64,000 bases of DNA from a virus. The stretch lies in UHGV virus genome UHGV-1372779, one strand, 5' to 3'. The translations under genes were made by a program, and so were the position numbers. Positions 33,616 through 64,000 of the stretch are shown here, piece by piece; position 1 is the first letter of the stretch; every line of letters starts with the position of its first letter. The notes below the pieces were generated by a model, which had not been told where the DNA came from, did no database searches, and saw only the letters and a list, made by a program, of their open reading frames with translations.

Positions 33616-34038
33616 ATGATTCATATTATTTCAATTGTTGTTATTTCATTATATTTGCTGTTATTAATTTTAAATTTATTCATTATGTCTATTATATCTG
33701 TTGATCCCTTCATGATAAAAGGAAAATCTGAGAATGTTTATCAATTTGTAACTTACCCTCTTGATGCCGAATTTCCAGAAAGTTCTGGTGTATATATTTA
33801 TGCAAAATGTCATGATTCAGATGATTGTTTACTTATTTATTGTGGGAAATCCAATAATTTAAAAAATAGAATAAACAGTCATAAAGATCCAAAAGATAAA
33901 ATAAATGCTCATAATCCTAACTACATATTTATTTACTATACGAACACAAAAGAACAAGCATTAAATATTGAGACAGACATTCTAGCTAATAATAGTTTTC
34001 TTGAGAATCATCAACTTCAGAACAATAAACAGGAATAG
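33616..34038 (+). CDS. Freestanding GIY-YIG homing-endonuclease-like gene (catalytic domain only). It is the only plus-strand gene in the window.
   Basis: 'SGVYIYAKC...LIYCGKSNNLKNRINSH' matches the GIY...YIG...R...H pattern. The annotated hydrophobic N-terminus may be spurious, with the real start near 'MIKGKSE'. Confidence 0.6.
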   Translation: MIHIISIVVISLYLLLLILNLFIMSIISVDPFMIKGKSENVYQFVTYPLDAEFPESSGVYIYAKCHDSDDCLLIYCGKSNNLKNRINSHKDPKDKINAHNPNYIFIYYTNTKEQALNIETDILANNSFLENHQLQNNKQE

Positions 34039-36305: not shown

Positions 36306-37514
36306 TTACTCTACAGTACTAATAAATTCACCTTCATCCTTAGTATTATATAATATCTCTCTAACTAATAACTTCCCAGCCTCAATTGCAGCCTCATCAG
36401 TACCTTCTTTAAATAACTCTTCTAATCTTTCAGTCACCTTTGGTCTGAATATAATCTCATTCTTCTCAATCTCAGCTGCTTGTTTAGTGGAACCTCCTTT
36501 TTCCATTAGGACAGGGATTCCTTTGTTAGTGACTACTCCTTCAACATTGATGTTGTGTTTTCTGGCGTGTAATGCTCCGATTGGTAGGAGGTTTACATCG
36601 TTTTCTTTGTCTTTTAGATATTTTCTGTAATGAGTGATGAATTTGGCTCCTTTTTTCCCAAATGTTATATAACTATTACCTCCTAATATTCCGGACTGCT
36701 GAAGTTGTTTTCTATTATTAAACATATCAGTAGATGATGCTTGAATAGCTCTTTGGTCACTTGCTTCTCCTAGAATATCCTGTATTCCAGATTGCCAGAC
36801 CTTAGCTTGCCCAATTTTTTTATTAGCTTTCTTTCTAGCTCTGTTAGAAAGTAATCCATATTTTTTATTAGAATATTGCCCAGCCTTTTGAATATCTGCA
36901 CCTGTTCCTGTATAAGATGAATTACTTACAGCATTTTGGTCAATATCTATTGTATCTGTTTTCTTTCCAAATGCATTATTTACTAGTCCTAAGGCTCCTA
37001 AATTAAAAAAAGAGCTTCCTAGTATTGCATCAGTAGTAGTCATTTTATCTGTTCCAATTCCTACTTTTTCTAAAGCACTTCCTGCTAATTTACCAGCCTT
37101 CATTATTCCTCCTACAACCATTCCTGCAGGGCCAAAAGACATTGCTACATTAGAAATTGTATCATAAGCAGAATCAAGCCCTTGAGTTAGATTACCTTTT
37201 TTACCTGAATAATTTTTTTGGAAGACTTTAAAATTGGATAACATATCTAATCCAGCTCCTATAGCTCCCATAGGATTTGCACCTCCACCTGTTGCTCCAG
37301 TTGTTTCAGCAACTGAAGTAGTAGAGGTATTAATCCCTAATACGGAATTACCAAGATTTCTGAGTCTATCTCCTAAGGTAAAGTTAGGTTTAATAGAATT
37401 TAAACTTGCTCCTTGAGCAGCCATAGCATTTAAAGTTAAGGCTGGAGTTGTTGCTGTGAGTTGGGGATCTGTAAGAACCCCTCCCCACTGTAATTTAAAT
37501 ATTATATGTTTCAT
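36306..37514 (-). CDS. Gly-rich protein of 402 aa with an N-terminal 'MKHIIFKLQWGG' leader.
   Basis: Shares the KLQxGG motif. There are Gly-rich hydrophobic stretches (GATGGGANPMGAIGAG..). Confidence 0.65.
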   Translation of the reverse strand: MKHIIFKLQWGGVLTDPQLTATTPALTLNAMAAQGASLNSIKPNFTLGDRLRNLGNSVLGINTSTTSVAETTGATGGGANPMGAIGAGLDMLSNFKVFQKNYSGKKGNLTQGLDSAYDTISNVAMSFGPAGMVVGGIMKAGKLAGSALEKVGIGTDKMTTTDAILGSSFFNLGALGLVNNAFGKKTDTIDIDQNAVSNSSYTGTGADIQKAGQYSNKKYGLLSNRARKKANKKIGQAKVWQSGIQDILGEASDQRAIQASSTDMFNNRKQLQQSGILGGNSYITFGKKGAKFITHYRKYLKDKENDVNLLPIGALHARKHNINVEGVVTNKGIPVLMEKGGSTKQAAEIEKNEIIFRPKVTERLEELFKEGTDEAAIEAGKLLVREILYNTKDEGEFISTVE

Positions 37515-40500
37515 TAGTTATAACTTGGTGTATATATAGTTTGTATTGCTGTTATAATTGGCTTATTTTTACCATCATATTTAAATCTCACTCTCATAAA
37601 TTTATCCCTAGGTCTAATTTCCATGAATGGAAGATCTTCTACTGTTACATCTTCTCCATTTTCATAAGTTCTTCTATGAGCTCTCATAGGATCGATTTCT
37701 AAGTAGAATAAGTCTTCTTTATATACAGAATTTCCTAAGATATTTCCCCAAACCTTAATATCCCTAACATCCATGCTCTTTCTCATAGTATATTGGTTTA
37801 ATTTTCTATCTTTAAAGAATTCTGCATTTAATTGATCTAAATATAAAGGTTCTCCAGTATCATCATCATATTGAAGTTTTCCTTTTTTATAATATAATTT
37901 TGGATCGAAGGTTATAATATATTCTGGAACAAATTCTCCATCCTCTTCTTCTTTACCTAATGAAGAAGTGCTAAAATTAGGATCTGATTGATATTTATAA
38001 GAATTTTCTTTACAATTACTAAAAGCATAGGCATCTCCTATTACATCATAGAGAATCTCTACAGGAGGAACATTATTAGATAATATTTGAAAGTTGTCAA
38101 ATATTTTATGTCTGGCTCCTTCTTTATTAACTATAAATTCTAGTTCGAATGGATATTGTCTATCATACCACACACAGTTTTTAATCTCTGTTTGGTTGTC
38201 AATTATTCCTGCCACTCCATGTTTCCAGAAGTATGTAAGTTCATGAGGTTCTTGGAGTTCTGGTATATTATTTAAATAAGATAATCTAATAGTTAAAGTA
38301 TCTCTAAATACTTGTCCTGATACTTCTTTATCTTTATCCACTCCTTCTCTATTTATTTCTACCTCAATATCTAGAGTAGCATAATATTTTCCTTCCAAAA
38401 CATATTTTTTATAGGTATTTTCTGATTGTTTAAACACTATTCTACTTTCTTTGTCAGAAATAGCTTCTATATAAAAATCGTCATTATCATTAGTTTGTCC
38501 TTCATCAGGTTCAATAAATTTATATTTTAAAGATCTAACTTCATTTATATCAATAGAATCTAGCTTAAGACTTAATTCTCCAATTCCTATATCTTTAGTA
38601 TCAGAACTTAACTTAGGAAACTCAACTCCGGGATAAACTACTTCTCTTAGATAATTAGAACTGTATTTATCCCCAGAATTATCATAGCAATTTGATAAAA
38701 CAATTCCCCTCGAAGTGTAGCTATCACTCCAACAAGAGGAAACAGATGATATATTTTTAGCAGAGTCTTTATCATAACTAAAATAAATATTATTAATATT
38801 CTCAGATAATAAAGGAATCCAAGAATATCTGGTTGTCCACAAATTTAATTTTTCATTAAAGCATATATTCCATCCTATTGAATTAATATCATTTCCTAAA
38901 TTATCAGTAGATTTAATATCATCATAGAATGTAAACATTATATCATATTTAAATGCGTTATAATGAGATTTAACATTTCTTATTCCTAACAACGGAAGTA
39001 TTTCCTTTTCAGTTAAAGTTATATTATCATTTAAATAAGATTGTATTTTAAAGTCAGAAATGGTTTCAAAAGATCTTCCATCTGTTCTCCAAATTCTCTT
39101 CCCTACTGTATCTACTCCATATACAAATCTTTCTGATTTAACTATAGAGTCCTTCCATTGTGATCCAAATGTCTTAGACAACATTGTAGGTCTTTCTGGT
39201 AATACTTTATTAGAGTTAATAAAAACCTCTTCTTTATTTTGCCCTTCTCCTAATGGAACTTTTTCATTAACTGGTAATATTCCTACTCCATGTTCAAATA
39301 CTACCAATAAATTGCTATACCATTCTAATATATCAGTTATGGCTCCAAATTCTTTGTTATAATCACTATAATTATTTAATCTAAATATTCTATAAGAATT
39401 TTTAAAGGCATCGGTAGTATATATATCTGAATATATTATTCTATTAGATAGCTCATTTTTTATATAAGGAACATCGGGGAGGATAAAGTTATTCTTCTCA
39501 GAAACTGTGGAGTTAAATCCTGCATTAAATAAAGTAGAGTCAGGAATTTTATAAGATCCATCAGATTGAAATCCATTTATAGGAGCAAAAGTTCTAGGAT
39601 GGCCTACTAACCCCATCTCTGATCCATTAGAGTCATCTTCTACTCTAAGAGATAAATTTATATTGCTCATACATTTAAAGGTTACCCAGTGTCCTATATT
39701 TACAGCATTAACATCTCCTCTATTTATCTCAGCACATTCTTCTAAATCTAAAGCTCCATTTTCAAATCCTGAGTAATGATCTTTCCATGTATTTTGGTTT
39801 ATAAAATCACTGTTAATGGGAGCTTCTGGATCTTGAAAATTCCTACACATTCTATGAGTAAAGTTTCCAATGAAACAATCTCCTCTATAGCAGACAATAA
39901 AATCATCTACAAATCCATATTCTGTTCTATCACATATAGGATAAAAGGGATCGGTTATATTACCTCTTATCTTAAAATAATCCTTTAAAGAATTTTCATT
40001 ATAACCATATGTAAGCACATTGAATATACTTAAAGGATCATTATATCCTTCTATTCCTACATAAGGCCCCCATTCTCCTCTTAATAAATTAGTAGCACTC
40101 TTATTAGGATTTTCTGATTTTAAGTAAGATACTCTATAAGCTTCTTCAGCAGCACCTGCTCTAGAAGAGAATTCCATAGTTCCAGAAGAAGAAAGTTGTA
40201 CACTATCTCCAACATAGGTTAAAGTAGATGTAGTTAAATATTCTGAAGTATTACTAGTATATCCATTTACATAATAGTGCCTAGAATTTTCAAACGAAGG
40301 TTCTAAAACATCGTTCTCTGGCTTAATAGGAGCAGCTACAACTTCATAAGGTATGGCAGAAAATAATTGTGAATATAATTCAGAGTTTAATTCTGCTTCC
40401 GGAATTATTGCAGCATTTATGCCGCAGGAGTCAATAGTTCTTAATCTGTCCTCAAATTCATGATCTAGTACTCTTTCATTAGTTAAAAATGATTCCGTTA

Positions 40501-42184
40501 TATATGTGTATGTTTGTCCTTCTTTTCTAATAGGAATAACAGGAAGATTAGATCCTGAGTCTAGTCCTATAGTTAATCCTTGACAGAGGATAGTTGGAAT
40601 TCTTTTTTGTCTAACTATAAAGAATCCTTTAGTATATTTATTAAGTTCTTCAATAACAGAATTATTAAATGTAAACTCAATTCCTATAGGATAAATATTC
40701 TTCGATGATGAATCTATAATGGGTCTAGAATCTATTTTAACCACTCCTTTACCATTCTCTAGTTGTACTGTTCCATTAGTGGATTTTAAAAATCCATCCT
40801 CATCTAATTCTATATATTTTCTATCTCCACTTACTGAATCATATATATCAAAATTAGTAAAGTCTGGAGAATCTGTTAATACTCCTCCCCTAACATTAAA
40901 TACTGGAGATAATGTATAGTTATTTAAAACATAGACTATTCCAAATCTATACAAATCATTCCAATATCCTAGCCTAAAATATATATTGTTAGGATTAGTG
41001 TATTCACCAGAATTAGAAGAGTTAGAAACATCTAAATATTGTTCATTAATATATCCTATAGACTCTTCTCTATATATTTTGGGGCATATTCTAAGACTTA
41101 AATCAGCTAATTCTTCATAAGGAATATCTGTTTTAGCAACATTTCCAAAAAATAATCTATTTTGTACTTGAGCTTGACCTTTTGCCTTAGAAATTATATT
41201 ATAAGTAGTATTTATTTCATCTAAAGAAATATCTATAAAAGGCTCTAGTCCTGTTATTATTATATGAGCTGATCCAGCTGTTATAGTAAACTTTGAATCA
41301 ACTATATAAGCTGAAGTTAGTCTACTTTTGTTATATGATCCAGTAGTTCTAGTACAATATACTTTAACATAATCATAAGTAGAATCTATATTAGTTAAAC
41401 TAAAAGCTACATATTTATCTGATATTGAATCAGATATATTTCCCTTAGGAGAAGTAGAACTTCCTGAGAAAATACTTACTATTCCAGATTCCCCTACAAA
41501 ATCTGTTTCGTTTCCATCAGAGTCCTCATATTTAAAGTAGAATACATAGTTACCTACTTTCAATTGTCCTCCTGATCTTGTTCCCAAGAATTGAATTTTT
41601 GGTATTTTGTTTATTATTTTATATAATCCTGCATCCCCTTCTAAGGTATCTTCATCATATATATTAGTATCATTATTTCCCGCTCTATCTACTACTTGAT
41701 ATTGATTATTTTCAGTAACAGAAAATCTACTATTTATCAGTTTAGGAGTATTTAAATCATCTGTTAGTATAAGATTAACAGATCCATCATAAGATGGTTG
41801 ACACTCTATATCTACTGGATGGTTTATATCTAAATTTAATTTTTTTGTTCTAAAATCTATTAACTCATTAGCATAATTTTTAATATATAAATGCCCAGAT
41901 TTTGGAGCTTCACCTGGATCAGCTGGTTCTATTGATTTATAATCTGATTCGCTTAGCTCTGAAATATTTTGAGTAGTTATATATTTACCATTTACTATTA
42001 TTGGTTGTGAATTTAGATCTAAATATCTTCCAGTTGTATTTTCTATGAGATACTTGTCTTCTGAAGATCTCATACATAATAAGGGATTATATTCATAACT
42101 TAGGAATCCCTTAACTGGCTTTATTTTGTATGCTACACTAAATACTAGACTTAGTGAGTTTAATATTTTGAAATCTGGAGCCAT
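37514..42184 (-). CDS. Giant structural protein of 1556 aa (tail or host-interaction type), N-terminus MAPDFKIL.
   Basis: Long ORF, contiguous with its neighbours. Confidence 0.65.
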   Translation of the reverse strand: MAPDFKILNSLSLVFSVAYKIKPVKGFLSYEYNPLLCMRSSEDKYLIENTTGRYLDLNSQPIIVNGKYITTQNISELSESDYKSIEPADPGEAPKSGHLYIKNYANELIDFRTKKLNLDINHPVDIECQPSYDGSVNLILTDDLNTPKLINSRFSVTENNQYQVVDRAGNNDTNIYDEDTLEGDAGLYKIINKIPKIQFLGTRSGGQLKVGNYVFYFKYEDSDGNETDFVGESGIVSIFSGSSTSPKGNISDSISDKYVAFSLTNIDSTYDYVKVYCTRTTGSYNKSRLTSAYIVDSKFTITAGSAHIIITGLEPFIDISLDEINTTYNIISKAKGQAQVQNRLFFGNVAKTDIPYEELADLSLRICPKIYREESIGYINEQYLDVSNSSNSGEYTNPNNIYFRLGYWNDLYRFGIVYVLNNYTLSPVFNVRGGVLTDSPDFTNFDIYDSVSGDRKYIELDEDGFLKSTNGTVQLENGKGVVKIDSRPIIDSSSKNIYPIGIEFTFNNSVIEELNKYTKGFFIVRQKRIPTILCQGLTIGLDSGSNLPVIPIRKEGQTYTYITESFLTNERVLDHEFEDRLRTIDSCGINAAIIPEAELNSELYSQLFSAIPYEVVAAPIKPENDVLEPSFENSRHYYVNGYTSNTSEYLTTSTLTYVGDSVQLSSSGTMEFSSRAGAAEEAYRVSYLKSENPNKSATNLLRGEWGPYVGIEGYNDPLSIFNVLTYGYNENSLKDYFKIRGNITDPFYPICDRTEYGFVDDFIVCYRGDCFIGNFTHRMCRNFQDPEAPINSDFINQNTWKDHYSGFENGALDLEECAEINRGDVNAVNIGHWVTFKCMSNINLSLRVEDDSNGSEMGLVGHPRTFAPINGFQSDGSYKIPDSTLFNAGFNSTVSEKNNFILPDVPYIKNELSNRIIYSDIYTTDAFKNSYRIFRLNNYSDYNKEFGAITDILEWYSNLLVVFEHGVGILPVNEKVPLGEGQNKEEVFINSNKVLPERPTMLSKTFGSQWKDSIVKSERFVYGVDTVGKRIWRTDGRSFETISDFKIQSYLNDNITLTEKEILPLLGIRNVKSHYNAFKYDIMFTFYDDIKSTDNLGNDINSIGWNICFNEKLNLWTTRYSWIPLLSENINNIYFSYDKDSAKNISSVSSCWSDSYTSRGIVLSNCYDNSGDKYSSNYLREVVYPGVEFPKLSSDTKDIGIGELSLKLDSIDINEVRSLKYKFIEPDEGQTNDNDDFYIEAISDKESRIVFKQSENTYKKYVLEGKYYATLDIEVEINREGVDKDKEVSGQVFRDTLTIRLSYLNNIPELQEPHELTYFWKHGVAGIIDNQTEIKNCVWYDRQYPFELEFIVNKEGARHKIFDNFQILSNNVPPVEILYDVIGDAYAFSNCKENSYKYQSDPNFSTSSLGKEEEDGEFVPEYIITFDPKLYYKKGKLQYDDDTGEPLYLDQLNAEFFKDRKLNQYTMRKSMDVRDIKVWGNILGNSVYKEDLFYLEIDPMRAHRRTYENGEDVTVEDLPFMEIRPRDKFMRVRFKYDGKNKPIITAIQTIYTPSYN

Positions 42185-46833: not shown

Positions 46834-47523
46834 TTATCTAACTGGTTTGTATGATTTACCGTAAGTCTTTCTATCAAATGAGAATTGAGCATCTAATATC
46901 TTATCTACATCATTTTGTGATAATTTATCAGGAGTTCTTGCTCTCTCACATAATCTTCCCCATTCCATTTGAATATCTTTAGCTATTTGCATAGCATTTT
47001 GATCTCTGTTGGCTATGCCTTGTTTATATAACATTGTATAAGCACAATAAGCTGCAATAGCTTCTGCTTCTTTATCACTTATAAATGGAAGTCCTTCTGG
47101 ATCTAACTTCTCTGCTCTATATAATAATAATACATTATGATAATCTCTATCAAAATATAAAGTATCCCCTGATTGATAATATTTAAGAAGTCTTCCATCA
47201 TCATATAATATTGACTCATTAATTTTCCAATAATTTATATATCTCTCAATAAAGCTACTGGCAATTTGAGGAAACCTTTGTAAATTGGAAGTCATTACCA
47301 TATTTGGGAAGTCAGCAAATACTGCTTCTATACTTAATATATCACAAGGAAGTTGCACTTCTCCATTTTTAACATCTAATATAATTCCTTTCACTTCTGT
47401 ATTTCTGTTACCTATTTTAGTATAAGCAATCATTCCTACAGTTGTAAATTCATTCTGATCCATTGTTAGACCATATTTAGCACTTATATATGTATAAGCT
47501 ACATTAAAGTTTAGTGTTTTCAT
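46834..47523 (-). CDS. Hypothetical protein of 229 aa.
   Basis: ORF only. Confidence 0.5.
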   Translation of the reverse strand: MKTLNFNVAYTYISAKYGLTMDQNEFTTVGMIAYTKIGNRNTEVKGIILDVKNGEVQLPCDILSIEAVFADFPNMVMTSNLQRFPQIASSFIERYINYWKINESILYDDGRLLKYYQSGDTLYFDRDYHNVLLLYRAEKLDPEGLPFISDKEAEAIAAYCAYTMLYKQGIANRDQNAMQIAKDIQMEWGRLCERARTPDKLSQNDVDKILDAQFSFDRKTYGKSYKPVR

Positions 47524-47677: not shown

Positions 47678-48369
47678 TATCTTGGAGGAGTTTGGTGATC
47701 AAGGTTTATTGGAGTTGCTAATTGGCGATACCATCTGACTTTTTTCTCTGTTAACCTTCTCTTGATATCATTAGCTATAGAATTGAAGTTTATAACATCT
47801 CCATTATTACAACAAGAGAATCCCAAGACTTGTCTAGGATCTTTAAATACCGCTATAATTGTTACTGTTTTTAATAAAGGAACATTAAACAAGTAACAAT
47901 CATACATATTATTTTCATTAGGTGTAGTATCTATATAAACATAAGGTTTTCTTCCTACCCATCTATCATATTTGTGATATTGATAAGATATATCAGTATA
48001 TACCTTAAATGGAGTTTCTCTATCAATAGTCCCAAAATAATCCACAGCTAAAGATCCTAAATCATTCACAATTTGTGGAATCTCTACATGGGGAATCTCA
48101 GTTTGTTTAAATTTAGATCCTATCCCACATATTCCACATTTTTCTATAGGCTTACAATCTACTTCTAAACATGTTATTGAGGTATATAAATCTTTATATG
48201 GAACTAATCCTTTAATAGCATATTCTTTAATAATAGTAAGCCTCTCATCTATTATATCATCCTCTAACTGTTCCATAGAAATTCTAGGATTAGAGGATAA
48301 TCCAGATAATCCAGCTATTATATCATTATATATAGCACTAGATAATTTGTTTAGCCAATCAATTTGCAT
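47677..48369 (-). CDS. Hypothetical protein. The first ATG gives MQIDWLNKL. The start at 48393 in the ORF track is TTG and overlaps a terminator hairpin.
   Basis: The codon at 48391-48393 is TTG. The ATG is at 48367-48369. Confidence 0.5.
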   Translation of the reverse strand: MQIDWLNKLSSAIYNDIIAGLSGLSSNPRISMEQLEDDIIDERLTIIKEYAIKGLVPYKDLYTSITCLEVDCKPIEKCGICGIGSKFKQTEIPHVEIPQIVNDLGSLAVDYFGTIDRETPFKVYTDISYQYHKYDRWVGRKPYVYIDTTPNENNMYDCYLFNVPLLKTVTIIAVFKDPRQVLGFSCCNNGDVINFNSIANDIKRRLTEKKVRWYRQLATPINLDHQTPPR

Positions 48370-48387
48370 ATTAGTATATAAAATTAA

Positions 48388-48418
48388 AGGCAAGCAGGAA
48401 GTTAATCCCGCCTGCCTT
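48388..48418 (-). terminator. GC-rich hairpin, a candidate terminator downstream of the Big_2-domain gene.
   Basis: aaggcaggcgg...cctgcttgcctt forms an imperfect stem in otherwise AT-rich DNA, followed by a T-rich run on the minus strand. Confidence 0.4.
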
Positions 48419-52593: not shown

Positions 52594-53608
52594 CGTATCA
52601 TTTATGTTAGCTCTATATTACTATAGAGATCAGACTATATCTTAATCTTATTTAATTATACTATAAATACTTAAATATAAATCCTTTACAACTGTTTCTT
52701 TCTCCATTTAGAACTTTTTTAACATTTGCATATCCTGCTTTTCTGCAGTCTCTCAAACATTTAAAAGTTTCCAAAAGATTACCATCAATATCATACTTAC
52801 CAATTGGAATATTCTCATATTTATGATTGGTTTTATTTCCAATTCTTTCTCCAGTATATTGTTTTTTCTTAAACTTCTTCATAAAAGGAAGTTTTTCATA
52901 AGAAAATTGATAACCATGAAATTGATGTCCTTGTTTGATGCTTCTAGGAAGATGCCCAGCACTAACATTTAAGTACTTTGCTGCATCTGTTACAGTTTCA
53001 AATTCTTTAACAAATTCTCCTTCTAGATCATACATATAAACTTTTACCTTTAAAATCTCAGGGCATCCACCTTCACCTCCGAGCTTTATATTATATGTAT
53101 CTTCTCTTTTTATATATTCTTCTGTAACTAACTCAGATTCTAATTTATAAGCCTCTTCTTTATTATCGAATATATTCAGAGTAATTCTTTTAAATTTGTC
53201 TATGCCATATTTATTAACTGCACATTGAAAAGGAGTTTTACTCTTTTTATAAGTTGCAGGTCTATTAATAAACACACCATTTCCTAAATATCCATCAAAT
53301 TTATCAGGATTTAACGTCTCATGAACTCCTATATATTGTTTATTGTTCACCAGACAAATTGTCATATACACTAAGTATTTTTTCATATTTTATATAATTA
53401 ATAAGATTTTCCCCATTTCGAACTTATGAATCTAAGTCCTACTCCTTTCGGATAGTCGTTGAACGTTCTCTAGCACTTCTAAAATAGCTTGTGTACTCTA
53501 GAGCTTCGCTGCTGATTGTCTTTAGATATACCAATTCTAAAGAGTTTCCAGCAATTAAAGGAATTTTTCTTACAACTTCCTCTGTTAAGCTACCAATGAA
53601 CAGATGTA
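52594..53608 (-). mobile_element. Second group I intron, related to the first, carrying a GIY-YIG homing endonuclease. The 3' boundary is uncertain: candidate omega-G positions are 52599, 52594 and 52565.
   Basis: Elements read on the minus strand:
- P-like 'aattgctgg'.
- Q-like 'acaatcagcagc'. The P4 pairing gcTg/cAgc covaries against gcGg/cCgc in intron 1.
- R 'gttcaacgactatcc' at 53450-53464.
- S 'aagatatagtc' at 52633-52643.
- P3 formed by tccttt/aaagga.
- P9 'ctctata-gtaa-tatagag' with a GNRA loop at 52611-52628.
- A guide-like 'Gttgtaag' in the position analogous to intron 1, pairing with exon 'cttacaaT' (8 bp plus U:G), which puts the 5' splice site after 53609. Confidence 0.6.
52661..53386 (-). 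CDS. GIY-YIG homing endonuclease of 241 aa, encoded inside the intron.
   Basis: 'YLVYMTICLVNNKQYIGV' followed by a downstream '...E...YNIKLGG' gives the GIY-YIG pattern. It lies between the R and S elements. Confidence 0.65.
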   Translation of the reverse strand: MKKYLVYMTICLVNNKQYIGVHETLNPDKFDGYLGNGVFINRPATYKKSKTPFQCAVNKYGIDKFKRITLNIFDNKEEAYKLESELVTEEYIKREDTYNIKLGGEGGCPEILKVKVYMYDLEGEFVKEFETVTDAAKYLNVSAGHLPRSIKQGHQFHGYQFSYEKLPFMKKFKKKQYTGERIGNKTNHKYENIPIGKYDIDGNLLETFKCLRDCRKAGYANVKKVLNGERNSCKGFIFKYL

Positions 53609-55702: not shown

Positions 55703-56344
55703 TTAATTTTTGATTTTTATTAGCTCTATGTTAATATCACTTCCAAAATCTTTAGCTTTAGCATAAGTTTTATCTATATAATGATTTCTGAAGCCAATTA
55801 AAGAGTACCCATGCTCTTTCCTTTTTCTAAAATTATACCAATGTATAACATCATAGTAATTAGTTACTACTATAGTTAAATCTATTTTTGCATCCTTGAA
55901 TACAAGATCAATTTTGTTATTTTTTATAGTTAATTCTCCTTGAACAGTGATACATTTAATTGGTTCTGTAAAATGTATAATAGTATCTTTAGACGCATCA
56001 ATTTGTTGTACTATAGTATCTTTGAGCGTAATAGTATCTGTTATTGTTATCTTTCCTATTGATGTTAAATTTTTTATCTTTATATCTTTTTCTTTAATTA
56101 TATCCTTATATAATGAATCTTGTTTCAAGATTAAGGTTTTAAATTGCTTTTCAGAAACATTGTATACCTTTTGTATAGAATCTTTTTGAATTAGCTCTGT
56201 AGTGTGGAGGTCTTTTAAATCTCTTATCTCTGTAGCCTGATTCCAACAAGTTTTTGTTATGAATATTATATAAATAATAGCTATTATAATAAGAGTATAT
56301 TTAGTTATTATCTTTTTCATATTCTTTTCTTCCATAATTATCAA
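55703..56344 (-). CDS. Protein of about 205 aa with an N-terminal transmembrane anchor.
   Basis: Hydrophobic 'TKYTLIIIAIIYIIFI' segment near the N-terminus. Confidence 0.45.
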   Translation of the reverse strand: MIIMEEKNMKKIITKYTLIIIAIIYIIFITKTCWNQATEIRDLKDLHTTELIQKDSIQKVYNVSEKQFKTLILKQDSLYKDIIKEKDIKIKNLTSIGKITITDTITLKDTIVQQIDASKDTIIHFTEPIKCITVQGELTIKNNKIDLVFKDAKIDLTIVVTNYYDVIHWYNFRKRKEHGYSLIGFRNHYIDKTYAKAKDFGSDINIELIKIKN

Positions 56345-56564
56345 TTTTCTTTTCCTTCACACTAACCCCTAAAAGACCTAATCCTGATGTAATTAAGGTT
56401 CCTATAAAGATTAATATTGATTCATCTATTACTCCAACTGGATCTAGTGATAGAGCAGCTATGTACCCTATTACTATTCCAGACAGAGTTAAAATTGTTC
56501 CTATAATTCTTTTAGAGGATAAATCTCCATTTGTTCCTCTAAAAATTTCTCTAAATATATTCAT
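56301..56564 (-). CDS. Small membrane protein of 87 aa with two transmembrane segments, holin-like.
   Basis: Two hydrophobic helices, 'IIGTILTLSGIVIGYIAALSL' and 'ILIFIGTLITSGLGLLGV', and a charged C-terminus. Confidence 0.4.
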   Translation of the reverse strand: MNIFREIFRGTNGDLSSKRIIGTILTLSGIVIGYIAALSLDPVGVIDESILIFIGTLITSGLGLLGVSVKEKKIDNYGRKEYEKDNN

Positions 56565-56566
56565 GA

Positions 56567-59500
56567 TTAATCATCACCCATTCTTCCTTTGATTAGTCTC
56601 CACCCTTCTGATGTATAGATAAATCCGGCTGCTCTTTGTTCTATTAGCCAGAACCATCCATTCATAAGCATTATCTCTATTCTATGAGATCCATAAGTGT
56701 TGGTATTATATATATAACATACTTGTCCTATTCTTCCTCCATTTAAAGAAACATTTCTAGTAGTATCATTAGAATTTATTTCTATGTAAGATATACCATC
56801 CAAATTTAATGGATAGGGATTATCTGAATCTCCAGACGTTATAGTAACAGAAATAGCTTTTGTTAAAGATAGGTCTTTAATTATAGTTTTTCCACTCAAA
56901 ATACATTCATTACTAACTTGGAGGTTATTAAAAACTCCTACAAGACTCCCATTTAGCCTTCCAAAGAATGAATCTTGGTTATACCAATAATTACTAACAG
57001 TATCTTTAGTTCCAAATACTAATCCGAAGATAGACTGTGAAGAAATAGAAGTTTTTACTTTACCCATAGCTAACCCATCTCTGTATCTATCTCCTTCTGA
57101 ACTTCTATCTGGGTCAAAGATTTCATAACTAAAATCTGATAATAGTATATCTCCTATATAATCTCCTACATTAATTTGAAATGCTCCATTTATCACATCC
57201 CCATTCACAAATAATTTACCTCCTTGAGTAACAACAAATGGTGCAATCGGAGTATCACTTGTTCCATTTAGGTTATTCAATACTGTGTTCATAGCTGACT
57301 CTAAAGTTCCTCCTGCCCAGTATCTAACTAGATCATCTCCTGATAAACTACCTTGATCTTTAGATGCAGTAATTCCTGATTTAGGAGCAAGCATGGTAAC
57401 ATCTCCATCTGAATTCCAATACAAATTATTATAGGCTAATAATCCACTACCATCATTATTAAATCTCCAAGGGTTATTATTATCATCACTCATTCTTAAC
57501 CCGTACATAGTTCCATCTGGGAGAAATTTAACATGAGGCCTCTCTACAGTAGTTACTACTCCATCAAGGGAAGTTGATTCTACTAATTCTATTCCTCCTG
57601 TAATACCCTCTTCACTAAATCTCCACTTAGTTATTATATCCTCTCCTGATATGGCTTTTATTTCTATTTTAGAACTTCTCATATAGTCTCCTTCTGGAAG
57701 TTTGCTACCTATATATATGTCAGCTTCTAATATTCTGGGATTTATATATCCATTTTTTATGATCATTCTATTAGAGGTAGCCCAAGATACCATATCTATG
57801 TATCCAAGATATCCTATTTTAGATGCAAAGTCTTCTCTTAACCCAGTTTGAATAGTGTTAAATCTTTCCCAATCAGAGACATTTCCAGGCTTAGAAGTTA
57901 TTCCTTCTTCTATTTCTTCTTTAGTTAATTCTATAGAAGAATTACATACTAATATTTCATAGTCATAATTCATCCAGAAATCTCCAACTGCATAGGGTCC
58001 TTTAGGCACATTCTTAGAAAAATATAGAGTTCCATTTGAACCTAGTATTTTTAAGCTATTACATATGCTAATTTGAAGAGGAACTAAGTCTACTTCTATG
58101 TATGTGGGGTCTTCTGGGTCTTTAGGACTAGGATAAGTAGTCACAACACTCCCATCAATATAACAAGTTGTAGATCCATTTTTAGTATAGTTATAAACAT
58201 TCAAACTAGCTCCTCCAGAAGGAATTTCCATAACTTTTTCTATATACATAGGAGGTCTGTCTGGAAAATTATCACTATATGTGGGATCCATTTTTTTATT
58301 AGGATCAGTATCATAGTTATAGTCTTCACTTCTCATATCTGGAACAACGTATTCTGGATTTTTGATAATTCTCTTTTCGCCTGGGCTATAGTCTCCATTA
58401 TAAAAAGCTAAACAGTCTGAATCTTCATTAGTTATGAATTCTTTTAATAAATGCGCCTTAGAAATGTTTATAGAATTTGCTTCTATAAAATTTCCAACAT
58501 CTACTAAATTTGATTTATTATGTCCATATACAGATGATCTTCCGATTATATAAGAATTATTACTATATAATCCACACTCATTCTTTAAACTTAATCCCCT
58601 ATAAATAGAGTTAGATAAATCTCCAAATTTACATTTAGAATCTTCTGAATATTCTGTATTATTTACTTCTTCTAAAATTTCTACTATAGGTTTATTACTG
58701 TCAAAAGCTGAAAGATAAATTATATTTTGTCTATTTATATCTACTACATTACCAAATTGACACAGTTCATCCCCAACTTCTATCATTCCACTTATATCTT
58801 CTATTACAGTAGGAGATTCATCTTCCTCATCCTCATCTTCTGAAGGTATGTCTTCATCTTCATCTGGATTAGGATACTTACTAAATTGATCTATATCAAT
58901 ATATACTTTACTATCAATTACATCCCTAATCCAAACTATATAATCTTTAGATCTAGGGTATTTTAAAGATTTGCATCTTACTAGATCATTCTTAGTAAAT
59001 GGAAGAAATTCTTCATTAAATGTTAGTTCATATACATCTACATTAACTAGATTACCTGTTTTTATATAGTTTTCATCTACCTCTTCGAACTCCATCTCTT
59101 CTATAATAGAGATTCCTTTAATTATAGCACTGCCCTGAGACATTACTGTGGCCCCTCTTATGGATCTAGCTTTTTCTAGTGTAAGTTCTGGAATATTTAA
59201 ATCATCTCTTACTAATATTGAATCTATCTCTAGAGTATATTTTCCTCCATCTTCATATATACTATATCCAGACCCATCAATACCAGGAGAGAAGTCATAG
59301 GATTCTACATTAGAAGTAGTAATTCCTCCATTTACGGAGGTTTCTATTCTATTATCAACATAAAGGTCTCCTGATATATTAGTATTTACATTTATATTTA
59401 AATTTTCTTCTGATAACTCTATTTTTGGAGATTCTTCATTATTATAGTATATTCCTAAAGAATCTTCAACTAGCTTTAATTTAAATAGTATAGAGTTATT

Positions 59501-60109
59501 ATATAAAGAGACTAGGTCTTCTCCTATTATATTTATTTTAGAATTGAGTATAGGATTTTTGGAGTCCCCAAAAGTTACATTTCCTTTAACAACTCCTCCA
59601 TCTTTTAAATTCAAATATATTTCTTCAAAACCATTAGCGGTTTTTAGAAAATGTCTTCCTTCGCTTATAATAAAGTAAGGATAGTTAATTGGGAGTTCTA
59701 CAGAATCATCAGTTTTATAATTAAGTATCTGCTTTAAATTACCTAATACTAGTTTGATTTGATCTTCAGTTAAGCTTTGTTTATTATTATAGGACAAAAA
59801 TCCTTCAATGCTTCCACCTTCTCCCTGAATAGATAGATTTATTAAAGAATTTCCATATTTTATATAGAATTGTCCTTCATCTTTTGTAAAATATATACCA
59901 TCAGACTTAATATCTGAGGCAGAGGTGACTTCATTGATTATTGGAGGGAAAGTAACATCTATTTTACCATTTTTAATTAGGTTCAGGAAAGAATTCCCGA
60001 ACCTAACTTTAACATTACCTTTTCCATTTAATATAACATCAGTAGTGCCATCGCCTACTATAGTATATATTTTATCTAATATTCTTTCATGTTTTACTAA
60101 CTCTCCCAT
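56567..60109 (-). CDS. Large structural protein of 1180 aa, a candidate tail fibre or spike, with an acidic 'DEDEDIPSEDEDEEDE' insert.
   Basis: Long ORF beginning at an ATG (60107-60109). Confidence 0.6.
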   Translation of the reverse strand: MGELVKHERILDKIYTIVGDGTTDVILNGKGNVKVRFGNSFLNLIKNGKIDVTFPPIINEVTSASDIKSDGIYFTKDEGQFYIKYGNSLINLSIQGEGGSIEGFLSYNNKQSLTEDQIKLVLGNLKQILNYKTDDSVELPINYPYFIISEGRHFLKTANGFEEIYLNLKDGGVVKGNVTFGDSKNPILNSKINIIGEDLVSLYNNSILFKLKLVEDSLGIYYNNEESPKIELSEENLNINVNTNISGDLYVDNRIETSVNGGITTSNVESYDFSPGIDGSGYSIYEDGGKYTLEIDSILVRDDLNIPELTLEKARSIRGATVMSQGSAIIKGISIIEEMEFEEVDENYIKTGNLVNVDVYELTFNEEFLPFTKNDLVRCKSLKYPRSKDYIVWIRDVIDSKVYIDIDQFSKYPNPDEDEDIPSEDEDEEDESPTVIEDISGMIEVGDELCQFGNVVDINRQNIIYLSAFDSNKPIVEILEEVNNTEYSEDSKCKFGDLSNSIYRGLSLKNECGLYSNNSYIIGRSSVYGHNKSNLVDVGNFIEANSINISKAHLLKEFITNEDSDCLAFYNGDYSPGEKRIIKNPEYVVPDMRSEDYNYDTDPNKKMDPTYSDNFPDRPPMYIEKVMEIPSGGASLNVYNYTKNGSTTCYIDGSVVTTYPSPKDPEDPTYIEVDLVPLQISICNSLKILGSNGTLYFSKNVPKGPYAVGDFWMNYDYEILVCNSSIELTKEEIEEGITSKPGNVSDWERFNTIQTGLREDFASKIGYLGYIDMVSWATSNRMIIKNGYINPRILEADIYIGSKLPEGDYMRSSKIEIKAISGEDIITKWRFSEEGITGGIELVESTSLDGVVTTVERPHVKFLPDGTMYGLRMSDDNNNPWRFNNDGSGLLAYNNLYWNSDGDVTMLAPKSGITASKDQGSLSGDDLVRYWAGGTLESAMNTVLNNLNGTSDTPIAPFVVTQGGKLFVNGDVINGAFQINVGDYIGDILLSDFSYEIFDPDRSSEGDRYRDGLAMGKVKTSISSQSIFGLVFGTKDTVSNYWYNQDSFFGRLNGSLVGVFNNLQVSNECILSGKTIIKDLSLTKAISVTITSGDSDNPYPLNLDGISYIEINSNDTTRNVSLNGGRIGQVCYIYNTNTYGSHRIEIMLMNGWFWLIEQRAAGFIYTSEGWRLIKGRMGDD

Positions 60110-60124
60110 TGTTTATATTTTAAA

Positions 60125-60445
60125 TCACCCTTCTAGTGCTGCAACTCTTGCTTCTAAGCTAGATACCTTAGAAGCTAAAGTCTGAAGTAATTCTTTATCA
60201 CTATTAGTATAATCATTAGAAGATAGTCCTTTACCAGATACCTTATCCACCTTACCTTCTTCTAACTCATTAGTCTTATTAGTAAATTTAGTGTCTAAAT
60301 CATCTATAGACCCTTCTAACTCATTCTTAGTATCTTCAATAATTTCTAAAGTCTCATCTTGGTTGGAGTTTATCTTCACTACCATATCCCTCAGATTATC
60401 TCCACCCTGATTGTTTGCTAATCTTCCTAAAATAAGTTTATTCAT
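60125..60445 (-). CDS. Coiled-coil protein of 106 aa that shares the 'KVDKxxGKxLSxNDYTN' repeat with the DGR target fibre.
   Basis: 'KVDKVSGKGLSSNDYTNSDK' matches the repeat in the target gene's N-terminal region. Confidence 0.5.
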   Translation of the reverse strand: MNKLILGRLANNQGGDNLRDMVVKINSNQDETLEIIEDTKNELEGSIDDLDTKFTNKTNELEEGKVDKVSGKGLSSNDYTNSDKELLQTLASKVSSLEARVAALEG

Positions 60446-60448
60446 ATC

Positions 60449-60811
60449 TTAATTTATTCCTAATTCTGCACAATCAGAATCAACTATAGATTTAATTTCT
60501 GCTCTTATATTCAAGAAATCTAAATATTTCTGAATATAAGATTCATCTAATAACCCCTCTTTCGCAGAGTTATAATCATTGATTAATTTCTTTTCATCTT
60601 CGTTAGTCCAAATGGACTCAATTGCTGCTTTTAAAATAGTATCACTATCTGGTTGTCCATAGAATACAATCTCATTACATTTATATTGAGTTGCAGGCTC
60701 TTCACCTTCTTCTCTCTCAACTGTAATTTGTTCTATGCCCCATCTATAGAAATACTTATTATTAACTATTTTTTCTAATTTTTCAGGCTGAAAGTCATAA
60801 TATGCGTTCAT
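60449..60811 (-). CDS. Acidic hypothetical protein of 120 aa immediately downstream of the RT. It is not Avd-like.
   Basis: ORF only. It is acidic rather than basic. Confidence 0.45.
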   Translation of the reverse strand: MNAYYDFQPEKLEKIVNNKYFYRWGIEQITVEREEGEEPATQYKCNEIVFYGQPDSDTILKAAIESIWTNEDEKKLINDYNSAKEGLLDESYIQKYLDFLNIRAEIKSIVDSDCAELGIN

Positions 60812-61808
60812 AATCTTGTCTAATTAAATGTTTCGGATTATAAATTTTGTTTAATAAATTCTGTGAATTACAATGTTTAGCCCAACTCCTATAACTAGAC
60901 ATTATCATTTTATATTGTCTGTAGCATAAGTATCTTTTATTAGTTCTAGCAGCTAATTTAGCAAACTTCTTCTTTGTCTTTTTTCTTAACAAAGTATGAG
61001 TATGCCTAAATACATATCCTACAAAGTCTATTCCTCTTATGGCAACAGGAAAGACTTGATAATTTTGTTTAACAGTTAATTTTAATGTTGCAAGATATTC
61101 CTTGATTTCTATTAATAAGTTATGAAGAAATTCTTTATTAGAATGTAATATAACTATATCATCGGCATATCTGTAATAAAATTTAACTCCTTTGACTTCT
61201 TTCAACCAATGGTCAAAATATGCTAAGAATAAATTAGCAAAGAATTGTGATAGATAGTTACCTATAGGAACCCCAGGTGCAGAGTCTATTATCTCATCTA
61301 ATAGAGATAATAGTTTTTTATCCTTTATCTTTTTCCTGATTATCTTCTTCAATATATCATGATCTATTGAAGGATAGAATTTTTTAATATCAAGTTTAAG
61401 ACAATATTTAGTTTCCTCTACATTTTGTCTAAGTTCTTTTTTTAATTTTCTAACTATTCTATGTATTCCTCTGTTTTTAATACAACTATATGTATCAGCA
61501 GTGAATACAGAAACCCAAATTGGCTCCATGATATTCATTATAGCATGGTGTACTATTCTATCTGGATAATATGGAAGCCTAAAGATTTCTCTTTCTTTAG
61601 GCTCATATATTTTAAATATTTTATATTCTGAGGTTTTATATGTACCAGATTTTAATTGTTCATGAAGTTTAAGAATATTTTCTTTTCTATTCTTATCATG
61701 TTTCATTACTCCAAAACTTCTGGTTTTGCCCTTTCTAGCTTTAGAATCAGCTAACTCTAGGTTTTCTATACTAATTATTTGCTCAAATAAATTATTGATT
61801 CTTTTCAT
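60795..61808 (-). CDS. Reverse transcriptase of the diversity-generating retroelement, 337 aa.
   Basis: The RT motif-4 DGR signature 'IGNYLSQ' and the catalytic 'YADD' ('YRYADDIVIL') are both present. The gene is adjacent to, and co-oriented with, the TR/VR pair. Confidence 0.85.
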   Translation of the reverse strand: MKRINNLFEQIISIENLELADSKARKGKTRSFGVMKHDKNRKENILKLHEQLKSGTYKTSEYKIFKIYEPKEREIFRLPYYPDRIVHHAIMNIMEPIWVSVFTADTYSCIKNRGIHRIVRKLKKELRQNVEETKYCLKLDIKKFYPSIDHDILKKIIRKKIKDKKLLSLLDEIIDSAPGVPIGNYLSQFFANLFLAYFDHWLKEVKGVKFYYRYADDIVILHSNKEFLHNLLIEIKEYLATLKLTVKQNYQVFPVAIRGIDFVGYVFRHTHTLLRKKTKKKFAKLAARTNKRYLCYRQYKMIMSSYRSWAKHCNSQNLLNKIYNPKHLIRQDYERIL

Positions 61809-61977
61809 ATTTTTGTTTTCTAATGGGAACTTTCAAATTGCATTTGCATTGCAATTACTACACTATGGTATTTTTGCACTGTTGCACTTTTACTAATACC
61901 CTCTGAAGGGTTTATTTTTTGCCAAGAGGCAAGGCCTTCACAAGTATATATTAGTTTTTGATATTCTTGAAAACACT

Positions 61978-62083
61978 AAGCTGGCCGCTGACATTGGCAT
62001 TGGCATTAGACACGCTGTTGTTCGAATTACAGTAGCTGAAACTGGAGTTGGCACTGTTATTACAAGAGCTACCAAGCAGCAAC
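61978..62083 (-). repeat. DGR template repeat (TR), intergenic.
   Basis: It is 106 bp long, shares about 82% identity with the VR, lies in the 320-bp gap between the RT and the target, and its coding strand is rich in AAY (Asn) codons. Confidence 0.8.
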
Positions 62084-62129
62084 AAGGTTGTGAACAGCCT
62101 ATATTATATTGTTTTTAACTCATAATATT

Positions 62130-64000
62130 CTAGATTAGGTAACAAAGCCGGCCGCCGACATCGGCATAGGCAGCAGACACGCCGCGGTGCGAATAACAGT
62201 AGCCGAAACCGGAGAGGGCACCGCTATAACAAGAGCCACCAAGCAGCAACGTACGCAAGCTACTTGAGCTTATAGATGTATAAAAATAATCACACCAATA
62301 AGTAGTAGAACCTCCACCATTATCAGAAGGAGCAAATTCACCATTCTCTCCAAAGATTAATTTAGTCACATAACCATCTTTCCTTGGGACATTTCCAACT
62401 TTAGTGAATCCTTCTAAGGTATCTCCGAATTTAGTTTTATCACTAGTTGTATAGAACTCACTTGTGCCTCCATCAGCATCAGTTTTAATATCAAATATAG
62501 CTCCTTCTACATTAGTCCAAATATGACCAAAAGGATTCTCAATTCCTCTATATCTACAACAAGCTAATGTAGTAGGAGTATCAACCTTATAATCATCTGG
62601 AAGATTTACAATAACTTCTCCAGATCCAGATGCCAATGAGTTAGATGCTCCACATTTTAACATTGGATAATAGCTATTATAAGCACTCCAATCAGAAGAA
62701 GCTAATGTAGTAGCTCCATTTCCTAAACCACCTTGCTTATATCCTTCAGCAGTTAGTTCTGAATTAACAGCAGCCTGGCAGTTTCTGTTAGCATATTCTA
62801 CATAATATAACCAGAATACAGTCTTCCAAGATTCATAATCCATTTCATTCCAATTATCCCCTCTATTTCTAGCTCTAGTTCTCATAGTAGCTCTAGTCAT
62901 ATATGTAGCACATTTTCCTAATTGAGATTTAGATAAAGTATCCCAATCAGCTTGATTGTTTCCACCTCTATATTGTTCTGTTTCATTACATACAGAGGCT
63001 AGTTTATTATTAGTTCTATCTAAAGCAGCTTCATAAGCTCCTACATAGACCTTAGGAACTTTAGTAAATCCAGTACATTTACCTTCTGATAAGTAACATC
63101 TTCTAATATTACCGTCTTCTTCAAATTTTCTGTAATGTTCTGGTATTTCTATCATAACTTGTCCATCAGTTCCATCTAGATTAGATGCTTCTCCTGTGAT
63201 TTTCTTACTCCAATCATTAGGATTTAAGTAATAATTTACACTTCCATCATCATTTAAAAGACAAGCTTTCATTTTAGATTGAATAGGCAGAGATTTATGT
63301 AATGACATATCTCCTATTCTTGTACAAGTTGGATCAGATACAGTAGTATCCCATTCTATACCATAGACTTTGTTTAGATAAATCTCTCCTTCTGAGTTAA
63401 ATGAGAAATCAGAGGATAATTTAACTGCTCCTAGAGTAGATTCTGTTGCAGGTCTAAGGTTATCATTAACTGTATCTTCTATATTATCTAACATTGATTT
63501 ATAATTATTCGAAAAGTCATTGGTGGAAAGAGATTTACCTTCGACTTTATCTACTTTATTTCCTAGTTTAGTTGTTAATTCAGCATTGGTGTCTAGTTCA
63601 TCTAATTTAGTTTTTAGATCATTAGTGAAGTCATTAGTTGATAATGATTTACCATCAATCTTGTCCACTTTGTTAGATATAGTTGCTACTAGATTCTTCT
63701 CAGCTGTTGTATAATTGTTATCAGAAAGAACCTTAGAACCGTCTTTATCGACCTTAGTTTCTAAATCAGATTCAATAGTTGCAATCTTCGCAACTTGTTC
63801 TTTTTCTGCTGTAGTATAATTATTATCTGATAACACTTTTGATCCATCCTTATCTACTTTTGTGTCTAATTCAGTATTAATTGTACTGATATTTTCATTG
63901 ATTGTGTCTATATCACCTTCTATAGTTGAGATGTTTCCCTCTATAGTTGTAATATCAGATTCAATAGTAGGAATTTTGTTTACATTTGTTTTATCTCCAT
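62130..64000 (-). CDS. DGR target gene, a tail-fibre-like protein with tandem ~20-aa repeats and a C-terminal VR (C-type-lectin-type 'GGSCYSG...GYCYSHRG' end). Partial: the frame is open to the window edge.
   Basis: The codon at 63836 that the track annotated as the start is GTG. The frame continues '..TIEGNISTIEGDIDTINENISTINTELDTKVDKDGSKVLSDNNYTTAEK' to position 64000. It contains the VR. Confidence 0.75.
   Translation of the reverse strand, partial: GDKTNVNKIPTIESDITTIEGNISTIEGDIDTINENISTINTELDTKVDKDGSKVLSDNNYTTAEKEQVAKIATIESDLETKVDKDGSKVLSDNNYTTAEKNLVATISNKVDKIDGKSLSTNDFTNDLKTKLDELDTNAELTTKLGNKVDKVEGKSLSTNDFSNNYKSMLDNIEDTVNDNLRPATESTLGAVKLSSDFSFNSEGEIYLNKVYGIEWDTTVSDPTCTRIGDMSLHKSLPIQSKMKACLLNDDGSVNYYLNPNDWSKKITGEASNLDGTDGQVMIEIPEHYRKFEEDGNIRRCYLSEGKCTGFTKVPKVYVGAYEAALDRTNNKLASVCNETEQYRGGNNQADWDTLSKSQLGKCATYMTRATMRTRARNRGDNWNEMDYESWKTVFWLYYVEYANRNCQAAVNSELTAEGYKQGGLGNGATTLASSDWSAYNSYYPMLKCGASNSLASGSGEVIVNLPDDYKVDTPTTLACCRYRGIENPFGHIWTNVEGAIFDIKTDADGGTSEFYTTSDKTKFGDTLEGFTKVGNVPRKDGYVTKLIFGENGEFAPSDNGGGSTTYWCDYFYTSISSSSLRTLLLGGSCYSGALSGFGYCYSHRGVSAAYADVGGRLCYLI
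62145..62250 (-). repeat. DGR variable repeat (VR) at the 3' end of the target gene.
   Basis: All ~19 mismatches to the TR fall at TR adenines on the coding strand (T on plus). On plus they read T to C, A or G. The VR carries a GC-richer IMH-like end (gtcggcggccggc, against TR gtcagcggccagc). Confidence 0.8.

Follow-up and report, generated by a model that had tools for sequence, protein, structure and literature searches.

The window analysed here, a stretch of 64,000 nucleotides of the virus genome UHGV-1372779, ends in a tail-fibre gene, a pair of direct repeats, a spacer and a reverse transcriptase (RT) gene that together have the arrangement of a diversity-generating retroelement (DGR). 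The fibre gene (the target), the variable repeat (VR) near its 3' end, the template repeat (TR) and the RT gene all lie on the minus strand, with the TR located 166 nt upstream of the RT start. The end of the VR is separated by 9 nt from the stop codon of the target (62130-62132). The coordinates of these and of the neighbouring features are listed in Table 1; related loci with which the window was compared are referred to by numbers with the prefix L.

Table 1. Features of the 64,000-nt window, with the cassette first (ORF, open reading frame; pI, isoelectric point)
Feature	Coordinates	Strand	Evidence or remarks
Target tail-fibre gene	62130-64000	-	C-terminal 622 codons and stop codon in the window; start beyond 64000
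Stalk with four KVDKxxGKxLSxNDxT-type repeats	63423-64000	-	Translations; weak tail-fibre matches phrog_18608 and phrog_32680
C-terminal globular domain, 430 residues, C-type-lectin fold of the formylglycine-generating enzyme (FGE) type, VR at its end	62133-63422	-	
VR, last 36 codons of the target	62142-62250	-	Hypervariable core at about 62161-62228
GC-rich hairpin GTCGG-CGG-CCGGC at the VR 3' end	62147-62159	-	Terminator-like scan
VR-TR gap, 58 nt	62084-62141	-	Holds the target stop codon; too small for avd
Small hairpin just 5' of the TR	62085-62100	-	In the VR-TR gap
TR, non-coding	61975-62083	-	27 adenines: 10 AAY codons, 6 AGY codons, one each of TAC, CAG and terminal AGT
TR-RT spacer with RT-17-type structured RNA	61809-61974	-	RF03020 match at 61840-61936
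DGR reverse transcriptase, 337 aa, pI 9.9	60795-61808	-	Pfam RVT_1, 71 bits; phrog_1423, E = 2.6e-126
ORF120, acidic, 120 aa, pI 4.35	60449-60811	-	phrog_11557, E = 1e-26
ORF106 'mini-fibre', context, outside the DGR	60125-60445	-	Translation; tblastn
Tail-fibre gene, 1180 aa, downstream of the cassette	56567-60109	-	Mosaic
GIY-YIG and NUMOD1 homing-endonuclease ORF	52664-53386	-	
CrAss_Ring_2 tail ring protein	47680-48393		Above cut-off
CrAss_Ring_1 tail ring protein	46837-47523		Above cut-off
crAss muzzle protein	37514-42184		PF25731 crAss_MUZ, 86.4 bits
GIY-YIG homing-endonuclease ORF	33616-34035	+	Sole convincing plus-strand gene of the window
LAGLIDADG_2 homing-endonuclease ORF	10284-10982	-	

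A repeat search of positions 58000-64000 returned a single outstanding direct repeat, the gapless TR/VR pair, which was 109 nt long, 82% identical and had a spacing of 167 nt. On the coding (minus) strand, the TR and VR differed at 20 positions, each of which was an adenine in the TR (A to G, 11; A to T, 5; A to C, 4). The other seven of the 27 TR adenines were the same in both copies, as were all 82 non-adenine positions. The probability that 20 mismatches would all fall by chance on 27 adenines among 109 positions is 2.5e-16. An earlier note on this DNA, made from the sequence alone, had described an intergenic copy and a gene copy of 106 bp with about 19 differences, all of them at adenines. 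The pair was present as described, except that it extended for a further 3 nt at the 3' end, which added one mismatch; tabulation of the mismatches by TR base gave no spread over all four bases. The run of asparagine codons that had been pointed out in the intergenic copy corresponded to the 10 AAY codons of the TR, which translates as LLLGSSCNNSANSSFSYCNSNNSVSNANANVSGQLS; the translation of the VR is LLLGGSCYSGALSGFGYCYSHRGVSAAYADVGGRLC. No further copy of the repeat was detected in the 64 kb, including when the TR-adenine positions were left free.

The RT protein carried both of the motifs on which its original assignment to a DGR had been based, IGNYLSQ (residues 182-188; 61245-61265) and YADD (residues 214-217; 61158-61169). 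When compared to all PDB chains, its best match was the Bordetella phage protein Brt (8ub7; 164.9 bits, E = 2.6e-47). The RTs of group II introns and retrons in the PDB scored no more than 68.8 bits, with an E value of 4.8e-18 for the best group II RT, so that a grouping with such RTs was not seen.

The spacer that separates the TR from the RT matched the Rfam family RT-17 (RF03020) with 39.4 bits (E = 4.7e-6; gathering score, 40.4), and all 95 positions of the model were aligned, those of the CCUUGCC...GGCAAAA hairpin among them. The homologous spacer of the relative L005 scored 46.7 bits, which is above the gathering score. RT-17 and RT-18 were the sole matches in the Rfam scan, which returned no group II intron RNA and no retron non-coding RNA. 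The spacer is presumed to be the 'Sp' region of the DGR RNA that is bound by the RT. Weinberg et al. 2017 reported that RT-10 sits at this position in BPP-1; only RT-10 was tied to a DGR, a role of the other RT motifs in other DGRs being speculation (PMC5737381). Folding of the TR and spacer as a single RNA gave a result no better than that for shuffled sequences (z = -0.9), and a scan for sigma-70 promoters, which did not cover promoters of the Bacteroidota type, found fewer sites than in shuffled sequences.

Spacers of the main, larger sister family (L008, 5870-5994, and other loci on contigs of about 50 kb) were found to contain the RT-17 core, the P1 loop of which is extended by an insertion of 42 nt with two hairpins. 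Because of this insertion they fall under the RF03020 gathering score (30.8 bits for L008), and the sister-family spacer is a variant that the Rfam RT-17 model misses.

The target matched phrog_5302, annotated as 'tail protein' (E = 4e-121), and its full-length homologue in L004 (3403-5679) encodes 758 aa; two more KVDK repeats and an N-terminal anchor lie outside the window. The suggestion that the fibre ends in a C-type lectin was borne out, since the C-terminus has a C-type-lectin fold of the FGE type and its best structural match was a DGR variable protein; the KVDK-type repeats that had also been proposed were present four times in the part of the stalk within the window. The closest known variable proteins were TaqVP from the Thermus aquaticus DGR (PDB 5vf4), TvpA and Mtd. 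TaqVP shares 16% sequence identity with the target and is a cellular protein, whereas the target is a phage fibre in which the variable domain is fused to the KVDK-repeat stalk. In one homologue of the target, the 663-aa protein P0031, the C-terminus (…LLLGSSCNNSANSSFSYCNSNNSVSNSNANVSGQLSVFMNIYN) consisted of the translated TR and the downstream spacer, with no VR, which indicates a VR-TR deletion, a recombination event, or collapse of the two repeats during assembly.

The window was then compared with related genomes. The nearest relative, the IMG/VR contig UViG_3300045988_115714 (L003/L004), was approximately 97% identical in the region; none of the contigs compared matched the window exactly. 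The TR and the RT protein of L004 were identical to those of the window, and 3 differences were found across the 1347 nt that comprise the gap, TR, spacer and RT. In the VR, 11 of 109 nt differed, every one of them a TR adenine (P = 3.4e-8); outside the VR, the target differed at 2.2% of positions. DNA comparison of six genomes that were approximately 97% identical in this region (the window, L004 and L113-L116) revealed 2 variable positions in the TR and 21 in the VR, 19 of which were TR adenines. The TR was identical in L004, L113 and L116 and had a one-base change in each of L114 and L115, that in L115 being a G in place of A at TR index 13.

Changes in the TR were also found in the corresponding VR. 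The change at VR index 63 copied a C-to-T change in the TR of that same genome. In L005, the RT of which is 85% identical to that of the window, the TR had 7 non-adenine differences from the window TR, and all 7 were present in its own VR. In total, a non-adenine TR change was also present in the cognate VR in all 8 cases (7 of 7 in L005 and 1 of 1 in the six-genome set), which supports copying from TR to VR. At the protein level, in 15 relatives (92-97% identical over the aligned C-terminal region and 95-97% over the 430-aa query), each AAY-derived position was occupied by 7-8 different residues, and essentially no variation was seen elsewhere. The shared TR and VR differences of L005 represent concerted evolution, as expected from repeated TR-to-VR copying, and the results as a whole are the population-level equivalent of the test for VR heterogeneity in reads that the earlier note had suggested. 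The combination of a hypervariable VR, a conserved TR and TR changes that are mirrored in the VR argues against a fossil cassette; the cassette is apparently active. At least 591 relatives of the RT were found in IMG/VR, and 60 of the best 80 RT-related loci from that source had the same layout and adenine-specific mismatches.

We conclude, with a probability of roughly 93%, that this region is a functional DGR that lacks Avd, with the layout target-VR-TR-spacer RNA-RT, situated among the tail-fibre genes of a large crAss-like phage. In the proposed mechanism, the minus-strand operon would be transcribed and the RT would bind an RNA composed of the TR and the RT-17-type spacer. The resulting cDNA would replace the VR, thereby re-randomising approximately 11 codons on the ligand-binding face of the C-type-lectin tip. 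Over all 18 adenine-containing codons, up to about 1e16 peptide variants would be possible in theory, and selection would be expected to retain only those variants with an intact scaffold. By analogy with BPP-1, cDNA synthesis would be RNA-primed from the spacer and followed by a homing step, and receptor switching would be the likely benefit to the phage.

Several observations weigh against this interpretation. The evidence for activity comes from comparison between genomes, not from within one population, and the VR of L114 had a lone non-adenine change at index 49. The RT-17 match of the window spacer was 1 bit under the Rfam gathering score. No clearly distinct pair of initiation of mutagenic homing sites (IMH/IMH*) was found in the TR and VR and, with neither this pair nor Avd, the priming and homing mechanism of BPP-1 is not simply transferable. 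Furthermore, the 8 TR adenines that precede a G were invariant in the VR of all six genomes, and such adenines must be accounted for either by mutagenesis combined with selection or by an effect of sequence context.

At these 8 sites the VR had G in seven cases (AGY serine to GGY glycine, and CAG to CGG) and T in one. When 53 distinct lineage TR/VR pairs (L004-L083) were analysed, adenines before G were represented by G in the VR at approximately 98-99% of about 155 sites; adenines in other contexts had mixed VR outcomes. The VR sites in the AG context encode conserved glycine, arginine and cysteine residues of the scaffold. Conservation of the glycines throughout the fibre family means that selection would suffice to explain the fixed sites, although the retention of A in the TR at these positions is still odd. 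A dislocation model, in which the nucleotide last inserted is added again by the RT, was rejected, since A-before-C sites became C in only 1% of cases.

The GC-rich 3' end is common to the TR and VR, and the differences within it are three fixed changes at TR adenines. The hairpin at 62147-62159 exists in the VR only, through two of these three changes, both of them A to G and at AG-context adenines. RNA folding gave -7.2 kcal/mol for the VR end compared to -3.4 kcal/mol for the TR end, which has no equivalent stem. It is speculated that this VR-only hairpin is a candidate for an IMH-like marker or discriminator.

Two other explanations for the repeat pair and its RT were considered. The cassette could be a relic that once diversified the fibre and is now inactive, in which case the differences between TR and VR would be fossils. 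This explanation is very improbable: the RT ORF is intact, and the RT protein was identical in a genome that differed by 2.2% in the neighbouring fibre gene. The VR differences among the genomes that are approximately 97% identical were restricted to TR adenines and were five-fold denser than the background, and the mirroring of TR point changes in the VR is contrary to what a relic would leave. Alternatively, the repeats could represent an ordinary duplication or gene-conversion tract, beside an RT that was derived from a group II intron, a retron or a defence system. In favour of such an origin, the top-scoring NCBIfam model for the RT was that of the group II intron RT/maturase (TIGR04416), at 127 bits, and RT homologues are annotated as 'retron-type' in the record of the relative cr55_1 and as 'Intron reverse transcriptase' in that of cr115_1. 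However, the score of 127 is far under the model cut-off of 300, as are those of the Drt and retron models under theirs (Drt3a, 78 against 200; retron St85, 57 against 235); no DGR-type family was returned by the same scan. Brt was by far the best PDB match of the RT, the GxxxSQ motif is present, and Rfam gave neither a group II intron RNA nor a retron RNA. The adenine-only mismatches (P = 2.5e-16), together with the match to Brt, effectively refute a non-DGR origin, to which we assign a negligible probability.

The role of the small ORF that follows the RT bears on whether the DGR is self-sufficient. No domain of the Avd type was identified in 20 small ORFs of the window or in the ORFs that flank the RT, the window being part of the genome; this finding is in agreement with the initial statement that no basic Avd-like ORF is evident. 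The acidic small neighbour mentioned at the same time corresponds to ORF120, which was the sole small ORF adjoining the RT. Clustering at 50% identity gave at least 590 clusters for its family (phrog_11557), most members of which have 110-135 aa; no Pfam or NCBIfam model was found for the family. The AlphaFold2 model of ORF120 had a predicted local distance difference test score (pLDDT) of 90.9 and contained four strands and three helices, with no informative fold match in the PDB.

ORF120 may be translationally coupled to the RT and may act as an obligatory accessory factor that replaces Avd, so that the DGR would not be self-sufficient without it. This proposal likens ORF120 to CH1, the small acidic protein of the Avd-less lineage 3a DGRs of Wu et al. 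2018, and is consistent with the 17-nt overlap between the ORF120 start and the RT stop. A homologue of ORF120 directly followed the RT in approximately 70 of 80 RT-anchored IMG/VR loci and in all five contigs that were reached from ORF120 homologues, two of which had host-like, non-fibre genes further downstream. Among 22 informative loci in bacterial genomes, nearly all of them from Bacteroidales, 17 had the same order. In L115 (logan SRR21431840_1732, 6540-6620), a 10-nt deletion of the RT stop region fuses the RT in frame to ORF120, with a called product of 449 aa.

Other results do not favour such a function. In L098, L099, L104 and L106, the gene immediately before an ORF120-like gene encodes a C-type-lectin fibre, and neither an RT nor a TR was present within 4 kb. 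ORF120 may therefore be linked primarily to the fibre gene. Some long members of the family carry the carbohydrate-binding module CBM_5_12, which suggests a role in the virion or in adhesion. CH1 (architecture E1; PMC5758913) is, like ORF120, a small, acidic (pI 4.7) and motif-less protein, and is restricted to Avd-less DGRs, but the two have been likened by description only. CH1 has 160-169 aa, compared to 120 aa for ORF120 and mostly 110-135 aa for its family, and no protein of CH1 length was found among the best 150 family members. In the DGR of crAssphage LMMB, the ORF at the position of ORF120 is unrelated to it. An obligatory accessory function is therefore considered doubtful, and a fibre-associated role is at least as likely as one in the DGR. 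The broader hypothesis, that the family is the missing partner of Avd-independent DGRs in phages of Bacteroidota, co-translated with the RT, needed for mutagenic cDNA synthesis or homing and acting with the RT-17 RNA, is regarded as equally tentative and unlikely.

A second family of small ORFs, designated ORF-B (100-138 aa, pI 6.3-9.2), has a C-terminal FPFTTTI...F.FT motif. In most related cassettes (L008, 7372-7806; L084, 5392-5706; L085, 5351-5653; and about 60 others), it lies after ORF120 or immediately after the RT. ORF-B was rejected as a basic substitute for Avd, since neither the window nor L003-L005 contain it.

A functional DGR without Avd, as proposed for the window, has many counterparts. 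Avd-less cassettes of the target-VR-TR-RT type that act on C-type-lectin fibre tips have been described in crAssphage LMMB and 15 other Alpha-group genomes (PMC7290462) in Epsilon crAss-like phages (PMC11054128) and in 18 of 43 genomes of the Zeta group (PMC12386605). Lineage 3, as defined by Wu et al. 2018, is without avd and, as they noted, implies an Avd-independent mechanism; their Architecture A, without any accessory gene, accounted for about 29% of DGRs (PMC5758913). The core architecture of that lineage, target-TR-RT without avd, was found in the window cassette. Given these published crAss-like cassettes and the RT relatives, of which there are at least 591, the window DGR is one more case of a common and already described kind, and its biology is not new.

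The DGR of crAssphage LMMB resembles that of the window in its order, TG-VR(IMH)-TR(IMH*)-RT, where TG is the target gene, and in the lack of avd (PMC7290462). The two also have in common a VR of 35-36 codons, 27-28 TR adenines and a tail-fibre target that ends the structural module, and their RTs are 55% identical. LMMB was placed by its authors in lineage 3 of Wu et al. 2018, which is Avd-less with a CLec3-type VR (PMC7290462). It differs from the window in belonging to the Intestiviridae, in its genome of approximately 98 kb, in its RT of 431 aa and in its post-RT ORF, which is unrelated to ORF120. The prototype BPP-1 DGR (Mtd-Avd-TR-Brt) shares with the window the adenine-specific transfer from the TR to a VR in a receptor-binding protein's C-type-lectin tip, and its Brt is homologous to the window RT (E = 2.6e-47). 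In contrast to BPP-1, the window DGR has no Avd, a VR-TR distance of 58 nt and no clearly distinct IMH/IMH* pair, and the two spacer RNAs are assigned to different Rfam families.

Similarity was also observed to the DGR phages of the Zeta group. According to their description (PMC12386605), these phages have, like the phage of the window, large crAss-like genomes (155-190 kb) and tail-fibre target-VR-TR-RT cassettes with a GxxxSQ RT, a C-type-lectin tip and mostly no avd. One of them, the DGR-positive ctSlg4, is listed there with a genome of 175,907 bp, a GC content of 29.31%, the predicted host Butyricimonas and the shortest RT of the set. In the passages of that source that were consulted, no mention was found of ORF120, of an RT-17 spacer or of AG-context adenines. 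The genome of the window is distinct from its relative L005, with an RT that is 85% identical and a target that is approximately 80% identical.

The window DGR adds a well-documented instance of tail-fibre hypervariation in crAss-like gut phages, and is relevant to the flexibility of their host range. No paper later than that of Wu et al. 2018 was found to address the question, raised there, of how Avd-less DGRs work. The practical value of the cassette is as a clean and tractable test bed for that mechanism: it is compact, VR turnover was observed in several natural genomes that are approximately 97% identical, an RT-17-type spacer is defined, the RT stop is overlapped by an ORF that may encode a partner, and a subset of the TR adenines behaves differently.

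The cassette is located in a region with a GC content of 29.4%, measured over the window, in which all long ORFs except one are on the minus strand. The muzzle protein and the ring 1 and ring 2 proteins identify the window as part of the virion module of a crAss-like phage, a classification that rests on the Pfam muzzle and ring models. The phage is probably a relative of the Zeta group; contigs that bear close relatives of the target were 176-185 kb in length. No genes for TerL, the major capsid protein or the portal were identified in the window. A megablast search of positions 56000-64000 against 50,697 phage records gave no match, nor did a tblastn search with a 494-aa ORF of the window that was guessed to encode the capsid protein, and PHROG scans of 15 other window ORFs were nearly empty.

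No tRNA genes were found in positions 1-64000. The standard code keeps the long ORFs of the window intact, with no sign in the structural module of the stop-codon recoding that is known from some Zeta and Epsilon crAss-like phages. Three homing-endonuclease ORFs were present inside the structural module (Table 1).

Downstream of the cassette, the identity of the 1180-aa fibre gene to L004 collapsed at approximately 56830-59960, where only 230 nt could be aligned, at 85% identity; L004 was otherwise 94-97% identical to the window. This mosaic pattern suggests that a second receptor-binding protein was exchanged by recombination. ORF106, which lies between this gene and ORF120, comprises one KVDK repeat, a coiled coil and an N-terminal module (G..NQGGD.LRD..VK.N) that is common to the DGR target and to a 975-aa fibre located upstream in L004; in tblastn searches, ORF106 matched the L004 fibres at their N-termini and in their repeats.

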